Made by a program: the position numbers and the translations under genes
The notes under the pieces: model-generated
What the model was told of the DNA's origin: nothing
Seen by the model: only the letters and a program-made list of their open reading frames with translations
Database searches by the model: none
Shown here: in pieces, positions 11,763-60,016 of the stretch
Position numbering within the stretch: the stretch's first letter is position 1
Layout of the letters: each line of letters starts with the position of its first letter
NCBI GenBank assembly: GCA_965153355.1
Contig: OZ231126.1
Location: forward strand, 15,438,001-15,502,000
Source: Flaccisagitta enflata
Taxonomy: Eukaryota
Direction of reading: 5' to 3'
Length of the DNA: 64,000 nucleotides

Positions 11763-11905
11763 GAATTGTACCGAATTTTAGCTAGTTTAGCATGAACGTA
11801 TCCGCGGAGTCTGGGTTGCCGGAACCCCCGGCGTTGGCTGATAGCGTGCTTCTTCCGCTCAGGTGGACATCCACAACATCCATTAAATTGAAACAGAAAG
11901 ACAAC

Positions 11906-11962
<57 letters not shown>

Positions 11963-12128
11963 TTTTCTATCTCTGTCAAATGATTTATGACAAAAGTGAC
12001 AAATGAACAATGACAGGTAAATGCAGAACAAATGAATAATCGTAAAGAGTTGTCGAAATGAGACAAAATTCTCCTCCCAAATTAAGTTCAAGAGTCAAGA
12101 ATTGATCATTTTCAGTTTTAAACGGAGG

Positions 12129-12167
<39 letters not shown>

Positions 12168-12185
12168 TCAGACAGACAGAGGGAC

Positions 12186-25271: not shown

Positions 25272-25783
25272 TTGGGCAGCGGCCCCGAAGAAGACGAAGT
25301 CCTGTAGAACACAGGGGACTTTTGTTCGTTCATTTGTTTGTCTGTTTGTCCCCCCCAGGCCCTCTCAGGCCTGAATTCTGTCCTCTCAGGCCTAAGATCT
25401 GCCTTCTCAGGCCTGAAATCTGCCCTCTCAGGCCTTGAATCTGCCCTCTTAGGCCTGAAATTTATCCTTTCAGGCCTGAAACCTGTCCTCTCAGGCCTTG
25501 AATCTGCCATCTCAGCCTTAAAATCTGCCCTCTCAGATTCAAGGCCTTAGAGGGCAGATTACAGGCCTGAGAAGGCAGATTTTAGGCCTAAGAGGACAGA
25601 TTGCAGGCCTGCGAGGGTCGGGGGGGGCGGACGGATGGACGGACGGACGGATGAACAAAAGTCCCCTGTGTTCTACAGGACTTTGTCCCCTTCGGGGCCG
25701 CTGCCCTGACTCTCATTCCGATTTTTAACCATGCAAAGCAGGGCAACGGGTATCGCTGACCCTTGGGCCCTTGGGCGACCTGT

Positions 25784-27957: not shown

Positions 27958-28893
27958 TTGATTCAATCAAATGGTCAGATGAAACGATCAAACTTCTTAT
28001 ACCTCTACAGTCTTCAATACACATCCTACTTACATCTTACCATCTACGATGATGATCAAATTTCATCCATTAATGGGTGATTGGAATGTTTATGTGATGA
28101 GATCTATCTTAAATAGCATGCATCCTTACTAGCATCAATAAACGTCGGTCAAACCAGGACACTGATTCGGCTTGTCACCTTTTTGCCAGTTAACTAGTTA
28201 GTAAACAGTGCTTTTTCTATCCACCTAATTTCTGAGACATTTGCATTTAATCAACATTAATGTGCACATAACATTTAGTATCTCAGGCGTAGGAACACGT
28301 GACCCAGAGGAACACGATTGACGCCCTTTAAATAATAGTTGAGATTGCCTTAACAACAGCTAAAGGTTTGAGCGGGGAGGATGCCGATTTTTCAATTTTT
28401 ATACTTTCTCTAAAATGTATGTAGAGATGTTAGTTGATAACCATCCATGCCTTAGCATTTGGTAAAAAGCCAGCAGTAAAGATATTGAGGTTCTTAGTTT
28501 GTCCCAGTATCGTTAATCACTTGAACTATAAATCCTTCCCTTTGTGTTGCAGGATAAACATACAGATATCAATTTCTACTTGATAAACTGCAAAATGCAA
28601 GGTACACATGGACGCAAAATACAGCGTGATGAGGCGCCAAAAGCCAAAAAAAATTTAGCACCCCCCACTACAGCCATATTGGCTGATTGAAAATTCTCAT
28701 AGAAAGTCATTTTGAGAAACTTAGGGGAATACAAATGGCGTCATTGGAGCGATTTTCGAGATTGTAATTAAAACCTTGAAATTTATCACTTTTACTCATA
28801 AAATACACACTCAAAGCCAGTCACAGACTGGGGTATCTGCTAGGACACCAATGAAGTATCCAATGGAACAAATCATCAGCCTCTAGTAAGTCA

Positions 28894-28973
28894 GCCTTCA
28901 TGGTCTAATGGTTAGAACACTTGCCTTCAGAAATGAGGGTCAAGGGTTTGAATCCAGGATGGGCATGAAGGTA
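28894..28973 (+). promoter_or_regulatory. tRNA-derived internal Pol III promoter (SINE-like head), present in every 298-bp unit
   Basis: A-box TGGTCTAATGG and B-box GGTTCGAATCC (GGTTTGAATCC in this copy) at tRNA spacing. GCCTTCA/TGAAGGT can form an acceptor-like stem. Anticodon and T stems are degenerate. Confidence 0.8.
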
Positions 28974-28974
28974 A

Positions 28975-29032
28975 CACAGGAGTTTGAGGGAGCGCTTAAA
29001 ACGCTGAGTCGGTCCCAAGCCCGACAACTGTG
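28975..29032 (+). ncRNA. Type-P5 twister-like self-cleaving ribozyme (9 copies starting at 28975, 29273, 32959, 33257, 33555, 33853, 34151, 34449, 34747)
   Basis: CACAG(P5) GA GTTT(P2') GA GGG(T1') AGCGCT(P1) TAA AAC(P2) GC(T2) TGA GTCGG(P4) T CCC(T1) AA GC(T2') CCGAC(P4') AA CTGTG(P5'). The GGUCCCAAGCCC core is the canonical twister P4/L4. Predicted cut between 28997 and 28998. P2 is one nt short. Confidence 0.82.
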
Positions 29033-29597
29033 GTGACTTACTATGCTGATGTAAAACAAATTGTATATCTCTGCTCATCGCATTCATTAAATGGTTCCTA
29101 CGTCAGACTCAAAGCCAGTCACAGACTGGGGTATCTGCTAGGACACCAAAAAAGTATCCAATGGAACAAATCATCAGCCTCTAGTAAGTCAGCCTTCATG
29201 GTCTAATGGTTAGAACACTTGCCTTCAGAAATGAGGGTCAAGGGTTCGAATCCAGGATGGGCATGAAGGTAACACAGGAGTTTGAGGGAGCGCTTAAAAC
29301 GCTGAGTTGGTCCCAAGCCCGACAACTGTGGTGACTTACTATTACGTTGATTCGGCGATTTGAATTCTTGGATTCTGTCATGTATCAAATGCTCTATCGG
29401 TCAGACATGACACACTGAGTTGAATTTACAAATCTTGCAGCCTTTTCATGACGGAACCCTCTGTCGCGGAGAAACCAATGCAGTGTTTGAGATTATGCAA
29501 TGTTTTTCTTACTCCTGAGTTTTCTCATTCTTCCAACTGTTTGACACTTGTGCCGCGTTGGTGAGAGACATCATCTTTTAGTATATCACTCACATAT

Positions 29598-30812
29598 CTT
29601 TTTAGTTGCGCTCACTTGCGCAACTCTGTAACCGGTCATGCCCATTGGTGTTTGTCAGTCCATCCATTGGTCAGTTGGTCTGTATCACTGCTTTTGCGGG
29701 TGGTTATTGCATTACTGCTGCTCCCCAAATGCTTTGTTAAATGTTTAATGGACTGCCCCCGCCCACCCACATGCGACTTAGCTATGTATCCGGCTTAGTT
29801 TTTATTGTATTTAGCATGTATTATTATCCTATATGTTTTTAGTTGCGTGCTACGCGACTCTGCACCCCGCTTTGTCCGTCCGTCGATCGGTCGGTCTCCA
29901 TTTTACTTTTTTGGCGTTTTTGAGCGTTTCAAGCTCATTACTCCTGCCCAAATGCCCCAGTGACCTTCTCCATCACTGCCCCTGCCCACCCGCACGCAAC
30001 TGGGGTAGCCATGTATCCGGCCTTGTTTAGATGCACGCACTCTTTAGCCTGCTATATCTGTTGGTCAGTCCATCACTGTTAGCTTTTTTTGGGCAGCGGC
30101 CCCAAAGGGAATGAAGTCCTGTAGAACACAGGGGGAATTTTGTTGGTCTGTTTGTTCCTTTGTTCATCCCCCCCTCATCAGGTCCCTCAGGCTTCAAATC
30201 TGGCCTCTGAGACCTCAAATCTGGCCTCTCAGGTCTCAAATCTGGCCTCTCAGGCCGCAAATCCAGCCACTCAGGCCTCAAATCCGGCCTCTCAGGCCTC
30301 AAATCCAGCCTCTCAGGCCTCAAATCCAACCTCTCAGGCCTAAAACCTGCTCTCACAGGTCTTGAATTAGGCTTCTCAGACCTCAAATCCAAATTCTCAG
30401 GCCTCAAACCTGGCCTCTTAGGCGTCAAATCAGCTATCTAAGCCTAAATCTATTACTCTCTGGCTTTCAAATCAGTCCTCTGACCTTTCAAATCTTAATC
30501 AAGCTCTCTCAAGCTTCAAGTCAGCCCTCTCAAGCTTCCGATTGGCATTATCAGGCCTTACATCAGGATGAAAAAAAGTCCCCCTGTGTTCTATAGGACT
30601 TCGTCCCCTTTGGGGCCGCTGCCCTGCTCCCCCTCACTCCAATTCACAATCAAAGCAGGGCAATGGGTACCGCTGACCACATATTGCCCTTGGGCGACCT
30701 GTTGGTATTTACAGGTGGTTTTCGCAATGAGCTCTTGCCCAAATGCTTGGGTTGGCCTATTCATGATTGCCCCTGCCCACCCGCACGCCACTTTGGTATC
30801 CGGCCTTTGTTA
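29598..30812 (+). mobile_element. Family-1 HINE-like copies (about 29598-29799, 29835-30027, 30030-30812), the last containing a family-2 copy (about 30085-30703)
   Basis: Termini as for the other family members. Family-2 internal 21-bp repeat AGGCCTCAAATCCAGCCTCTC. Confidence 0.7.
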
Positions 30813-30869
30813 AAACATTTTGTGGCCCTTTAAAGATGTTGTGATCTGTGACCAGAAGTAGAAACGCCC

Positions 30870-32494
30870 CCTATGTTAGGATCTGGTAGTGAGAGGGGAA
30901 GTGGCCCTGAAGAGGCCGGTGACCTCTAATTGGCTTGATTTTGAGCATGAAGGCTTGGGTTGAAGCGTCAAGGGTGGAATCAGAACTTTGATGGTGGGAT
31001 TTGAGCCTCAAGATTAGGTTTAAGTCTTGTGGCTGGTATTTGAGTCTCACAGCAAGAAACTGAGCCTCGAGGCTGTTATTTAAGCCTTGAGGCAAGGATA
31101 TGAACCTTGAGGCAGGAATTTGAACCTCAAGTTGAGTGTTAGCGCCTCGAGGTTTGCATTTGAGCCTCAAAGTGGGGATTTGTGCCTCAAGGGGGTGATT
31201 TGAGCCAATTGGCAAAGGAGTGAGCCTCAAGGCTGGGATGTGAGCCCTGAGGCTGGAATTTGAGCCTTGAAGCTGGGACTTGAGCCTCAAGGATAGGATT
31301 AGAGCCTCAAGGCTAGGATTTGAGCCTCAAGGCTGGGATTTGAGCGTTGGGACTGAAATTTGAGTCTCGAGACTGGAGTTTGAGTTTTGAGACTTTGAGT
31401 TTGAGTTTCGAGACTGGAATTTTGTTCTTAACAGGGATTTCAGCCTCTTGGCTGGAATATGAACCTTGAGGCCAGGATTTCAGTCTCAATGCTGGTACAG
31501 TTGATTTGAATCCCAATCTGTTAGATTTCAAGGGACTAAAACACGACTTAGTCGCGTGCACGCGAATCTACACCTTGCTCTGTTTGTTGGTCGGTTGGTG
31601 TGTCTGCTGGAATTTCAGCATCAATGAAATGCAACAAATGTCTCCTACTTACAGACAATGATCTGATGAGACCAGAAACTTGTAAAGAAAATGTTTGATA
31701 CAAAATCATATAAAAACAAGGCCGGATACACGGCAATCCAATGGCGGATGGTTGGGCAGGAGCAGTAATGCAATAGTCGCAAAAACGTCAGATGGTCAGC
31801 GGTACCCGTTGCCCCTATGTGAGTGTATGTGGGTGTGTGGTGGGTAGAGGGGCAGCGGCCCCGAAGGGGCCGATGACCTATGCTGTTTTTATTTGAGCTT
31901 CAAGGCTGGAATTAGGGCCTGGAGGCTGGGATTTGGGCCTCGAGACCAGATTTGAACTTTGAGGCTGGGATTTGAGCCTGGGGACTGGGATTTTAGCCTC
32001 GAGACTGGGATTTGAGCTTTGAGGCTGGGGTTTGAGCTTTGCGGCTGGGATTTGAGCTTTGAGGCTAGGATTTGAGCCTCCAGGCTGGAATTGGAGCCTC
32101 CAGGCTGGGATTTGAGCCTCCAGGCTGGGATTGGAGCCTCCAGGCTGGGATTTGAGCCTCCAGGCTGGGATTTGAGCCTCCAGGCGAAGATTTGAGCTTC
32201 AAGGCTGGGATTTGAGCCTCAAAGACTAGAATTTGGGCCTCAAGACTAGGATTTGGGCCTTGAGACTAGGATTTGGGCCTCGAGGGGGGGGGGGACGGAG
32301 AAGAAGAAGAAGAAGAAGAAGAAGAAGAAGGAGGAGAAGGAGAAATTTCCCCTATGTGTGAAAGCAAAGGTCATCGGCCCCTTCGGGGCCGCTGCCCAAA
32401 AACCGCGCAGATTTCAAAAATGTGATGGACGCACCGATGGACCTACCGCCCGACCAACACGGCAAGGTGTAGAGTCGCGTGTCCGCGACTTAAA
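30870..32494 (-). mobile_element. Degenerate family-2 copy (about 30870-31540) and a family-1 copy (about 31715-32494) containing a family-2 copy (about 31793-32401)
   Basis: 20-bp repeats GGCTGGGATTTGAGCCTCAA. SubTIR GGGCAGCGGCCCCGAAGGGGCCGATGACC and its inverse. Confidence 0.7.
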
Positions 32495-32722
32495 AATGAT
32501 TGACTCATAATGAGAAACAAAAACAAATCAATAATACAAAAGAAATCTTAAAAAAGTTGTTAGAAATTGTTATTTATGTCTTTTTTTTCGAAGCTCTGCG
32601 ACAGAGGGTTTAGGAAACTCACCATAGTCAGCTTTGGGCTGTGTGATATATTCACGGCGATTTACAAAATGAGCTATTGATCATGGTAGTGAGATGAAAA
32701 TAACCAAGTTTGACTCAGCGTA

Positions 32723-34943
32723 CTTACTATGCTGATGTAAAACAAATTGTATATCTCTGCTCATCGCATTCATTAAATAGTTCCTACGTCAGACTCAAAG
32801 CCAGTCACAGACTGGGGTATCTGCTAGGACACCAATGAAGTATCCAATGGAACAAATCATCAGCCTCTAGTAAGTCAGCCTTCATGGTCTAATGGTTAGA
32901 ACACTTGCCTTCAGAAATGAGGGTCAAGGGTTCGAATCCAGGATGGGCATGAAGGTAACACAGGAGTTTGAGGGAGCGCTTAAAACGCTGAGTCGGTCCC
33001 AAGCCCGACAACTGTGGTGACTTACTATGCTGATGTAAAACAAATTGTATATCTCTGCTCATCGCATTCATTAAATGGTTCCTACGTCAGACTCAAAGCC
33101 AGTCACAGACTGGGGTATCTGCTAGGACACCAAAAAAGTATCCAATGGAACAAATCATCAGCCTCTAGTAAGTCAGCCTTCATGGTCTAATGGTTAGAAC
33201 ACTTGCCTTCAGAAATGAGGGTCAAGGGTTCAAATCCAGGATGGGCATGAAGGTAACACAGGAGTTTGAGGGAGCGCTTAAAACGCTGAGTCGGTCCCAA
33301 GCCCGACAACTGTGGTGACTTACTATGCTGATGTAAAACAAATTGTATATCTCTGCTCATCGCATTCATTAAATGGTTCCTACGTCAGACTCAAAGCCAG
33401 TCACAGACTGGGGTATCTGCTAGGACACCAATGAAGTATCCAATGGAACAAATTATCAGCCTCTAGTAAGTCAGCCTTCATGGTCTAATGGTTAGAACAC
33501 TTGCCTTCAGAAATGAGGGTCAAGGGTTCAAATCCAGGATGGGCATGAAGGTAACACAGGAGTTTGAGGGAGCGCTTAAAACGCTGAGTCGGTCCCAAGC
33601 CCAACAACTATGGTGACTTACTATGCTGATGTAAAACAAATTGTATATCTCTGCTCATCGCATTCATTAAATGGTTCCTACGTCAGACTCAAAGCCAGTC
33701 ACAGACTGGGGTATCTGCTAGGACACCAAAAAAGTATCCAATGGAACAAATCATCAGCCTCTAGTAAGTCAGCCTTCATGGTCTAATGGTTAGAACACTT
33801 GCCTTCAGAAATGAGGGTCAAGGGTTCGAATCCAGGATGGGCATGAAGGTAACACAGGAGTTTGAGGGAGCGCTTAAAACGCTGAGTCGGTCCCAAGCCC
33901 GACAACTGTGGTGACTTACTATGCTGATGTAAAACAAATTGTATATCTCTGCTCATCGCATTCATTAAATGGTTCCTACGTCAGAATCAAAGCCATTCAC
34001 AGACTGGGGTATCTGCTAGGACACCAATGAAGTATCCAATGGAACAAATCATCAGCCTCTAGTAAGTCAGCCTTCATGGTCTAATGGTTAGAACACTTGC
34101 CTTCAGAAATGAGGGTCAAGGGTTCGAATCCAGGATAGGCATGAAGGTAACACAGGAGTTTGAGGGAGCGCTTAAAACGCTGAGACGGTCCCAAGCCCGA
34201 CAACTGTGGTGACTTACTATGCTGATGTAAAACAAATTGTATATCTCTGCTCATCGCATTCATTAAATGGTTCCTACGTCAGACTCAAAGCCAGTCACAG
34301 ACTGGGGTATCTGCTAGGACACCAATGAAGTATCCAATGGAACAAATCATCAGCCTCTAGTAAGTCAGCCTTCATGGTCTAATGGTTAGAACACTTGCCT
34401 TCAGAAATGAGGGTCAAGGGTTCGAATCCAGGATGGGCATGAAGGTAACACAGGAGTTTGAGGGAGCGCTTAAAACGCTGAGTCGGTCCCAAGCCCGACA
34501 ACTGTGGTGACTTACTATGCTGATGTAAAACAAATTGTATATCTCTGCTCATCGCATTCATTAAATGGTTCCTACGTCAGACTCAAAGCCAGTCACAGAC
34601 TGGGGTATCTGCTAGGACACCAAAAAAGTATCCAATGGAACAAATCATCAGCCTCTAGTAAGTCAGCCTTCATGGTCTAATGGTTAGAACACTTGCCTTC
34701 AGAAATGAGGGTCAAGGGTTCGAATCCAGGATGGGCATGAAGGTAACACAGGAGTTTGAGGGAGCGCTTAAAACGCTGAGTCGGTCCCAAGCCCGACAAC
34801 TGTGGTGACTTACTATGCTGATGTAAAACAAATTGTATATCTCTGCTCATCGCATTCATTAAATGGTTCCTACGTCAGACTCAAAGCCAGTCACAGACTG
34901 GGATATCTGCTAGGACACCAATGAAGTATCCAATGGAACAAAT
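32723..34943 (+). repeat. 298-bp tandem array, block 2 (about 7.4 near-identical units)
   Basis: Exact 298-bp periodicity, also visible as repeated 60-aa pseudo-ORFs in the track. Confidence 0.97.
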
Positions 34944-36036
34944 TTTTAGGTTCTAGGTACAATCTCAGAATTCCCTCTGATGACGGCCACTCATATTCCC
35001 CTTAGTGACTCAAAACAATTTTCAAAAGGAAATTTCATTCAGCCAAATTGGTTGTAGTGGGGGGTGCTAAAACTTTTGGCGCCCCATCACGCTGTATTTT
35101 GCGTCCATGTGTAGTGTTTGCGCATCGAGGGAGGCTAAAAATAATTACATCCGTTCTACTGGCTAATGAGAAACCAACTTCATAGACCGTCCACCATAGT
35201 AGTAACGCCATAACTAGGTACATCTGTTGCCTCAGCCAATTCAACACCCCGAAATCCGTTTTTTTGGCAAGAGACACCGAGGATCGTTTTTTGTCGAAGT
35301 CGTTATCGTCATCATCCTCATCGTCATCCTCATCGTCATCATCGCCGTCATCGTCGCCTATCTATGCGGCGTCATCGGCGTCGTTTTTTTGGCGCCGGAA
35401 AGGCGGGAGTTTCCCGGTAATTGCGCCTTTCTGTCTCGACGAAATGGTGTCTGTGGCGCCGTCAGTCTGAAGCGTCCCCAATTAGCGCCGTCTTGTGAGA
35501 CCGGCGCTCCTCGGCGTTCCTCCGGCGCTTAACCGGCGTGGTCCGGCCTGGCTAAAAAGAAGAAGAAGAAAAAAGGAGAGTGTGCGGGAGTTGTTACGAG
35601 TCGAGGCAAGTTTGATGAAAAAAAAAAAAAATATCCGGCGCTTATTCTGTCATCTTGACATTAGGGATGAACTCGATGGTCAACATTGGTGTGTTTGGCA
35701 AGTGTTGAAATGTCGAATACGAGTTATAGATCAATAGCCGTAAAAGCATCAGGTGGTCAGCGGTACTTGTGTCCTGCTGGAGTAGTTAGTGATTAAGTAT
35801 GAGGGAAGGCGCAGGGCAGCGGCACTGAAGGGGTCGATGACCTATGCTTTCATACAAATGTGGAATTTTCTCTCTCTCCTCCTCCTAGAAGCTGGGGGGA
35901 GAGGGGGAAATGGCTGAATTTAGCTGAATTTGGTAGAATTTGGCAGCAATTGGTAGTCGGTAGAATTTGGCAGAATTTAGCCGAATTTGTCAATATTTGG
36001 CAAAATTTGGCAGGATTTGAGTGAATTTGGCAGATA

Positions 36037-49147: not shown

Positions 49148-60016
<10,869 letters not shown>

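Follow-up and report, generated by a model that had tools for sequence, protein, structure and literature searches.

A tandem array of 298-bp units with a twister-derived core and a tRNA-like segment in a genomic contig of Flaccisagitta enflata

General features of the locus

A 64-kb stretch of the Flaccisagitta enflata genome (contig OZ231126.1, positions 15,438,001–15,502,000 of the forward strand; hereafter the window) carries a tandem array in which each 298-bp unit joins a transfer RNA (tRNA)-like segment to the core of a twister ribozyme. There are 9.3 copies of the unit, 97–100% alike, and they form one array on the + strand between 28809 and 34943. The twister ancestry of the core is near certain. 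It is about as likely as not that the array is a short repeat, encoded in the genome and equipped with a ribozyme that may cut as a dimer – a twister equivalent of the Sm-alpha repeats, which resemble short interspersed elements (SINEs), and of the non-LTR (lacking long terminal repeats) retrozymes of animals. An earlier, sequence-only reading of the same DNA had proposed about 9.2 near-identical 298-bp units over 28809–34943. Its copy number is borne out and its extent stands, but the array is not continuous: the second unit is split by a 3,379-bp insertion (29343–32721) that the reading did not mention (Table 1).

Tandem Repeats Finder (TRF) reports a period of 298 bp twice, at 28809–29346 (1.8 copies, 97% matches) and at 32722–34943 (7.5 copies, 98% matches). 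Eight full copies (98.7–100% identity) and three partial pieces were recovered by blastn with one unit, and none elsewhere in the window. Anchoring on the start of the unit gives ten unit starts; the full units of the second part begin at 32793, 33091, 33389, 33687, 33985, 34283 and 34581. The consensus unit has a GC content of 45.6%. A dimer of this consensus contains no TTTT on the + strand, as the earlier reading had said, and a run of five T (34943–34947) follows directly after the last partial unit. Both the size and the GC content of the unit fall in the range of the short tandem repeats of animal non-LTR retrozymes (150–450 bp, low GC).

For 10 long open reading frames (ORFs), all Pfam matches are below threshold and of low complexity; among the 156 ORFs of at least 90 aa, the 40 with the highest complexity are non-coding in appearance. 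A scan for sigma-70 promoters and terminators, which is irrelevant to a eukaryote, gave results at the level of shuffled sequence.

Table 1. Positions in the window of the array, of the motifs in its first unit and of the adjoining elements
Feature	Position	Strand	Basis
Left arm of host inverted-repeat element; TA before CACATGG	28603–28784	+	Inverted repeats; blastn, 78% over 182 nt to 35113–34940
Array part 1: unit 1 (28809–29106) and first 236 nt of unit 2	28809–29342	+	TRF; blastn, 99.7% and 98.7% identity to reference unit
Decayed tRNA-like segment of unit 1 (unit positions 85–157)	28893–28965	+	ARAGORN at relaxed threshold
Acceptor-like stem, 7 bp, GCCUUCA/UGAAGGU	28894–28900 / 28966–28972	+	Sequence
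A-box-like motif TGGTCTAATGG	28901–28911	+	Motif comparison
B-box-like motif	28945–28955	+	Motif comparison
Twister core of unit 1, P5-permuted	28975–29032	+	Twister-P5 alignment, descriptor, folding
P5 of unit 1, CACAG/CUGUG	28975–28979 / 29028–29032	+	Sequence; pairing prediction
P2 of unit 1, GUU (extra U at 28985) with AAC	28982–28984 / 29000–29002	+	Alignment
GAGGG and GC of unit 1	28986–28990; 29003–29004	+	Alignment
P1 remnant AGCGCU: A-U pair around palindromic GCGC, no room for a loop; directly 5' of the predicted scissile bond	28991–28996	+	Alignment
Predicted scissile bond of unit 1 (U189^A190 of the unit)	U28997^A28998	+	Alignment
P4 of unit 1, GUCGG/CCGAC, with loop L4 UCCCAAGC	29008–29025	+	Alignment
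Foreign insertion, 3,379 bp, splitting unit 2; not part of the repeat	29343–32721	.	Sequence, unit alignment, blastn
Array part 2: final 71 nt of unit 2, then seven complete units and a 65-nt partial unit at the end	32722–34943	+	TRF, alignment, blastn
Right arm of host inverted-repeat element; inner end overlaps array end by AAAT and carries the T5 run 34943–34947	34940–35113	-	Inverted repeats, blastn

The twister core

No Rfam family reaches its curated gathering score in the window. The Twister-P5 model (RF02684, gathering cut-off 37.6 bits) aligns with the unit at 30.4 bits, with an E-value of 2.5e-4 in a search of 751 nt (28700–29450) and 0.022 over the whole window. The covariance-model comparison that the sequence-only reading had named as a check on its twister has thus a mixed outcome: Twister-P5 aligns, but below its cut-off. 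Across the window, six units score 30.4 bits and two others 29.8 and 25.2, which places eight of the nine at E≤1. Every conserved unpaired position of the consensus is present and in order – GAGGG, UAA, GC, and the L4 loop UCCCAAGC within CGG...CCG. Two features cost the alignment score: the 14-nt P1 interior of the model has no counterpart (0 nt) in the unit, and P2 contains one gap. The score falls short, then, because P1 is a loop-less palindromic hexamer and an extra U weakens P2.

The core was also searched for with a descriptor, GAGGG-N(4-34)-TAA-NNN-GC-N(3-9)-GGTCCCAAGCC, with 100 dinucleotide shuffles as controls. It has nine matches in the window, all in the array and on the + strand, one in each of the nine units, and none in the shuffles. 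The GAGGG of these cores starts at 28986, 29284, 32970, 33268, 33566, 33864, 34162, 34460 and 34758. A descriptor combining the B box with the start of the twister has eight matches, again with none in the shuffles.

Two-thirds of the cores (six of nine) are identical to the consensus; in these, no conserved loop nucleotide is altered, and P4, P5 and the two sets of pseudoknot partners (T1 GC/GC, T2 GGG/CCC) are intact. The remaining three have one or two changes in P4 or P5. With G-U pairs allowed, P4 pairs at 5/5 positions in seven units and at 4/5 in two, and folding of a three-unit transcript gives the P5 pairing within a unit a probability of 0.98. In all, order and spacing are correct for about 24 conserved positions, the P4, P5, T1 and T2 partners are complementary, and the TAA-NNN-GC geometry is that of 69 phage twisters with a closed P1. 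A tRNA-like A/B-box segment joined to a P5-permuted twister core, as first proposed from the letters of the sequence, is upheld, and all of the motifs named in that proposal lie where it had placed them.

The tRNA-like segment

ARAGORN predicts a pseudo tRNA-Phe(GAA) with a decayed cloverleaf at unit positions 85–157, at the 80% threshold only. The B-box motif GGTTCGAATCC is exact in six of the nine units. The combination of an A box, 33 nt and a B box has matches in eight units and none in shuffled sequence. In the predicted 298-nt cleavage product the two boxes would lie at positions 202–256, and the promoter-like segment would therefore be in its 3' part, as is also the case in the cleaved Sm-alpha monomer (review PMC6765202).

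A literature search found no description of a twister with an RNA polymerase III (Pol III) or SINE head, nor of a twister satellite, though the supplementary lists of PMC8501958 and 10.1101/2022.07.19.500677 may include such elements. This agrees with the earlier statement that no family combining a tRNA head with a P5 twister was known to have been described.

Cleavage site, P1 and predicted folding

In twisters of Schistosoma mansoni, variants with 2A–7A are active and single-A variants inactive; the 5' end must be AA, and the -1 position is unconstrained (PMC8501958). The register at the unit's cleavage site has therefore to be U^AA. Both this U^AA and a U>C change at the -1 position in run X18 agree with a free -1 base and the AA requirement. 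A register with a 4-bp AAAC/GUUU pairing was rejected: it leaves a single A after the scissile bond, the state that was without activity in S. mansoni (PMC8501958).

The P1 remnant AGCGCU has a predicted self-duplex energy of -8.3 kcal/mol. P1 is described as conserved yet dispensable, a twister without P1 cutting at near the wild-type rate (review PMC5408937), and the loop-less P1 is therefore not fatal to activity. There is a precedent among hammerheads for such a design – a helix III of one base pair and a palindromic tetraloop, in which dimeric constructs cut much better (PMC7229834, PMC6765202). No description of a dimeric or palindromic twister was found in the literature, as judged by titles. 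The caveat of the sequence-only reading that P2 is one nucleotide short matches the UUU beside GAGGG, which offers two A-U pairs with either a mismatch or a bulged-U G-C pair.

In a nested energy model, with pseudoknots left out, two separate twister folds have an energy of -20.4 kcal/mol and a strand-swapped dimer sharing the 6-bp P1 has -31.9 kcal/mol. A P1-type twister spanning two units was considered and set aside. For an isolated 304-nt span this fold has the lowest energy, but in the three-unit transcript its probability is 0. The unit as a whole folds better than its shuffles on both strands (z -5.27 for the + strand, -4.24 for the - strand). In the best fold the tRNA-like segment is a long hairpin, which, together with a 20-bp long-range helix, is placed above P5, giving a compact branched RNA; retrozyme RNAs are likewise reported as stably self-folded (PMC7229834). 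Within 28700–29450, at E≤10, there is no ribozyme match on the - strand and no hammerhead match on either strand.

Short P1 segments in other twisters

As a natural yardstick, the same descriptor was run on viral contigs, giving 72 matches in 44 loci. The P1 segment is 14–32 nt long in 69 of the 72 phage matches; in these 69, the P2 triplets pair 3/3 in 66 and P4 pairs 5/5 in all. The three viral matches with a short segment (L011, L024, L034) have neither P2 nor P4 and were rejected as chance matches. A scan of JGI metagenomes with the fixed geometry of the core of the unit gave 0 loci, and a scan of prokaryote genomes also gave 0.

Seven loci came from a second metagenome scan for cores with a short P1, and only one of them, L045, is credible. 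Four of the others (L047, L048, L050, L051) were rejected as having the matched GAGGG inside an ordinary P1 hairpin; L046 and L049 have no P2, and L046 has no P4 either. The L045 twister scores 34.8 bits, with a P2 of GUU/AAC (3/3 pairs) and a 6-bp P4 (CCUUGG/CCAAGG). Its P1 segment, GCACGUGU, is loop-less and fully self-complementary, with 4/4 pairs and G-U ends. The two twisters have UAAAACGCUG in common and differ by compensatory changes in P1 and P4. L045 is present as a single copy in a 1,388-bp metagenome contig of different composition. Two independent self-complementary P1 remnants suggest, at the level of sequence, a feature that has been kept, although a stem that had lost its loop would also leave a palindrome.

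The L045 twister (381–425, - strand) lies less than 100 nt upstream of an 89-aa ORF (28–297, - strand), the end of which is similar to the C-terminal part of tyrosine recombinases (Pfam Phage_integrase, E 2e-4, below cut-off). A link between this twister and a eukaryotic mobile element of the recombinase type is possible.

Occurrence of the unit in sequencing runs

Of 24 listed runs, 20 contain the unit; they come from 12 studies, are nearly all labelled as marine or aquatic metagenomes, and include six RNA libraries. Four RNA libraries from four studies (X2, X11, X18 and X19) were compared with the unit, and their contigs are 95–99% identical to it. X2 and X11 contain self-closing contigs (297 and 328 nt), with a joint at which the sequence goes back by 298 nt. 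In X18 one 328-nt contig spans the unit, and in X19 two 151-nt contigs cover it. The contigs of all four studies have AA at unit positions 44–45 and an exact B box, with the hexamer and P2 unchanged; the X18 contig has a C at the -1 position. Judging from such contigs, expression of the unit is plausible.

X11, an oligo-dT RNA library, also contains a diverged relative that follows the unit over 28927–29043 with 8 base differences and has a different sequence upstream of 28927. It has a 1-nt and an 8-nt deletion at 28978–28987, in the 5' part of the core, and there is therefore at least one other, twister-damaged member of the family. The 38 nt to the left of the host element described below (28560–28597) are not covered in the four RNA libraries, which is uninformative for a single-copy stretch in contig data.

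The insertion in unit 2 and the host element

The stretch that interrupts unit 2 came in later than the array and is an insertion of transposon type. Unit positions 228–236 (ACTTACTAT) are duplicated on its two sides, at 29334–29342 and 32722–32730, as a target-site duplication of 8–9 bp, and its ends are short imperfect terminal inverted repeats (TACGYTGA...). The insertion is non-coding. It contains 20–21-bp minisatellites at 30186–30431, 30932–31495 and 31891–32285, and nested inverted repeats that share GGGCAGCGGCCCC.

A dispersed repeat of about 70 bp is present at the right end of the insertion (32422–32500) and at 15 other sites in the window (among them 1523, 2385, 11690, 14841, 17672 and 50631), with 72–92% identity. 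Elsewhere in the window, sub-threshold matches to plant and animal microRNA precursors (MIR2118, MIR533, MIR7533, mir-4650) occur on both strands at 56455–56694, 11901–12182 and 25479–25598. They most probably represent long palindromic repeats, not genes for microRNAs.

The array itself lies inside an inverted-repeat element, the two arms of which are given in Table 1. TA flanks the outer ends of this host element, which is presumably Tc1/mariner-like. In the RNA library X18 the arms have word depths of 374–642, far above that of the unit, and are joined to many different flanks on their outer side; contigs in X18 and X19 diverge into different flanks at 28602/28603, and in X18 at least one other copy of the element runs into unrelated sequence after 28804. 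The host is therefore an abundant transposon-like family that is normally without the array. Compared with other copies, the left arm has an extra CCAAAAAAAA. Both junctions between array and host show microhomology of 2–5 nt. Along the array, unit positions 44–45 (28852–28853 in unit 1) read TG, AA, TG, AA, TG, AA, TG, TG, AA, TG.

A possible mechanism and the evidence against it

As a ribozyme-bearing short repeat, the array would be transcribed along the + strand, by Pol III from the A/B-box-like motifs or by read-through; T4 is absent from the unit, and a T5 comes after the array. Each 58-nt core, recognised from its sequence, would fold locally as a twister closed by the predicted P5. Cleavage would then occur between U189 and A190 and release a 298-nt monomer ending in 5'-OH and 2',3'-cyclic phosphate. 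With the promoter-like motifs at 202–256 of this monomer, only arrays or circles could regenerate a full unit, which is the logic of Sm-alpha. The 6-bp P1 helix could form only between two copies, and the unit would cut best as a dimer, like the hammerheads of newt, axolotl and Penelope elements. The monomer might further be closed into a circle by an RtcB-type ligase and be spread with the help of a borrowed reverse transcriptase. Self-cleavage itself is predicted with roughly equal confidence for and against, no better than that because of P2 and the competing fold described below. A bolder form of the proposal – a natural dimeric twister, complete only when two neighbouring units or two RNAs pair, that cuts multimers and spares unit-length, one-copy circles, and with it the first genome-encoded family of twister circles with its own tRNA-type promoter – is tentative, and probably too bold.

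Several results weigh against the array being an active repeat of this kind. The Rfam score of the core is below the cut-off, and one of the nine units misses E≤1. Variable sites within the array make up 4 of 62 core positions and 10 of 236 others, which gives no sign of selection on the core. P1 is 6 nt long and loop-less, so it cannot form a hairpin in cis. The triplets adjoining L1 pair only 2/3 as UUU/AAC, or 3/3 as GUU/AAC with U177 bulged, and no bulged U in P2 is found among the 69 phage examples. In folding models that leave out pseudoknots, a local hairpin that uses the hexamer and the cleavage site competes with the nested twister fold (-21.0 vs -10.2 kcal/mol), and P1 pairing between units has probability 0 in a three-unit transcript. 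The L045 twister is single-copy, so its palindrome cannot act between tandem units.

The promoter-like segment and the sequencing runs are subject to similar reservations. ARAGORN at default settings finds 0 tRNAs in the window, and the Rfam tRNA model has no match at E≤10 in 28700–29450. The A-box-like motif agrees with 9 of 11 positions of the box consensus. Of the features of tRNA-derived SINEs, no A-run or A-tail, direct repeat or target-site duplication was found at the array ends. All of the runs are available as contigs, which have neither RNA ends nor strand and in which a circle, a tandem transcript and DNA look alike, and RNA libraries can contain DNA.

The growth of the array points in the same direction. 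The two-unit TG/AA periodicity fits DNA-level duplication better than the copying of a monomeric circle, and, from this near-alternating variant and the place of the array inside an inverted-repeat element, the array looks to have grown at least partly by DNA-level duplication. The rolling-circle reverse transcription that the sequence-only reading had invoked to explain the non-integer copy number is not needed, given the TG/AA pattern and the transposon-like host, which point to amplification as DNA.

Alternative explanations

The foremost alternative, somewhat unlikely but better placed than the others, is that the array is a dead relic – a SINE-like sequence that lost its P1 loop and gained a U in P2, and then multiplied as ordinary satellite DNA when unequal crossing-over took place within a DNA transposon-like element; its occurrence in RNA libraries would be due to read-through or to DNA carried over. 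Much of what has just been set out would follow: the sub-threshold Rfam score, the loop-less P1 and defective P2, the higher-order TG/AA pattern, a core that within the array varies no less than the remainder of the unit, and contigs that are no proof of transcription. The embedding of the array in an inverted-repeat element with microhomology at both junctions, and the X11 variant contig with its 8-nt deletion in the 5' part of the core, are equally in keeping with decay. However, the loop nucleotides, P4, P5 and pseudoknot partners are intact in six of nine units, and the hexamer and P2 are unchanged in the consensus from four other studies. The unrelated L045, a second twister with a loop-less palindromic P1, suggests a design that is kept, and P1 is in any case reported to be dispensable (PMC5408937).

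It is less probable, and on balance doubtful, that the unit is a monomeric mini-twister, active without a partner, in which the hexamer is a short linker closing P1 and the palindrome a by-product of loop deletion. Twisters without P1 cut at a near wild-type rate (PMC5408937), the local P5 closure has a probability of 0.98 and the inter-unit P1 of 0, L045 is not tandem, and removing the loop from any stem would by reasoning leave a palindrome. Against these points, two independent short P1 segments are fully self-complementary (3/3 and 4/4 pairs), whereas the other eight short-segment matches (three viral, five from metagenomes) have no P2, or neither P2 nor P4, at the GAGGG concerned. In the nested model the dimer fold gains 11.5 kcal/mol over two separate folds, and hammerheads offer a precedent for the same design (PMC7229834, PMC6765202).

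A third possibility, very improbable, is that the unit is an RNA replicon – a viroid-like circular RNA with one twister, replicating in a marine host – and the array its integrated cDNA. Asymmetric circular RNAs with a twister are common in metatranscriptomes (930 clusters; 10.1101/2022.07.19.500677), the unit recurs widely across marine libraries of both RNA and DNA, and both of its strands fold well. On the other hand, the - strand has no ribozyme match at E≤10, the unit occurs in many runs listed as DNA at about equal identity, and the tRNA-like A/B-box segment suggests transcription from a DNA template.

Finally, the idea that an ordinary satellite looks like a twister by chance, for which the sub-threshold Rfam score and the window E-value of 0.022 might speak, can be given next to no weight in view of the roughly 24 ordered and correctly spaced positions with complementary P4, P5, T1 and T2, the absence of descriptor matches in 100 shuffles, and the three viral matches of the chance type, which have no P2 and no P4 where P4 of the unit pairs 5/5.

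Comparison with known systems

Ribozyme-bearing tandem repeats that give rise to small linear or circular RNAs have so far been hammerhead systems: those of newts, flukes and the retrozymes. The twisters mentioned in a 2020 review are limited to truncated ones in RTE elements. If the array is indeed a twister version of these repeats with a tRNA-like promoter segment, the life style would be independent of the class of ribozyme, and the unit would be a natural counterpart to the engineered expression of circles with twisters. The unit is also a testable case for a dimer-dependent twister; a dimeric twister, if real, would be a design convergent with double hammerheads. The array serves as a warning that circular-looking ribozyme contigs in environmental RNA data can derive from chromosomal arrays. 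Should the family of dimeric-twister circles exist, some of the single-twister viroid-like circles in marine metatranscriptomes would be products of plankton chromosomes, not free replicators.

Sm-alpha and Sj-alpha of Schistosoma share the most features with the unit: a length of about 300 nt, a tandem arrangement, and an internal promoter of the Pol III type (here A/B-box-like) followed by a ribozyme (PMC6765202). They differ in having a hammerhead and a fluke host, while the unit has a twister and a marine host. Animal non-LTR retrozymes are also non-coding tandem repeats of 150–450 bp with less than 50% GC and a stable self-paired fold (PMC7229834, 10.64898/2026.07.22.740005), and unit-length RNAs from the array would, like theirs, have ends suited to RtcB ligation. 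Each retrozyme repeat contains a type I hammerhead, of which the unit has none, and the available portions of these two papers report no tRNA-like Pol III head.

The hammerheads of newt and axolotl satellites and of Penelope elements provide the closest parallel for P1. In them, the helix beside the cleavage site is one base pair around a palindromic tetramer, with pairing between copies (PMC7229834, PMC6765202). The class of ribozyme is different, and dimeric action, demonstrated there, is conjectural here.

Two systems with twisters can also be compared. The T-variant twisters at the 5' end of Perere-3 (RTE) in S. mansoni resemble the unit in a weak or unconventional P1, a tie to a mobile element, a 5'-AA end and a free -1 base (PMC8501958). 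They are P1-open with a P3 stem and stand at the start of a coding long interspersed element, whereas the unit is P5-permuted, with a closed loop-less P1, in a non-coding tandem repeat with a tRNA-like segment. The asymmetric viroid-like circular RNAs are, like the unit, small, with one twister, a self-paired fold and self-closing contigs in environmental RNA (10.1101/2022.07.19.500677). The clusters named in the available text of that study have the twister-P1 form; the unit, in contrast, has a chromosomal DNA template and a promoter-like segment.

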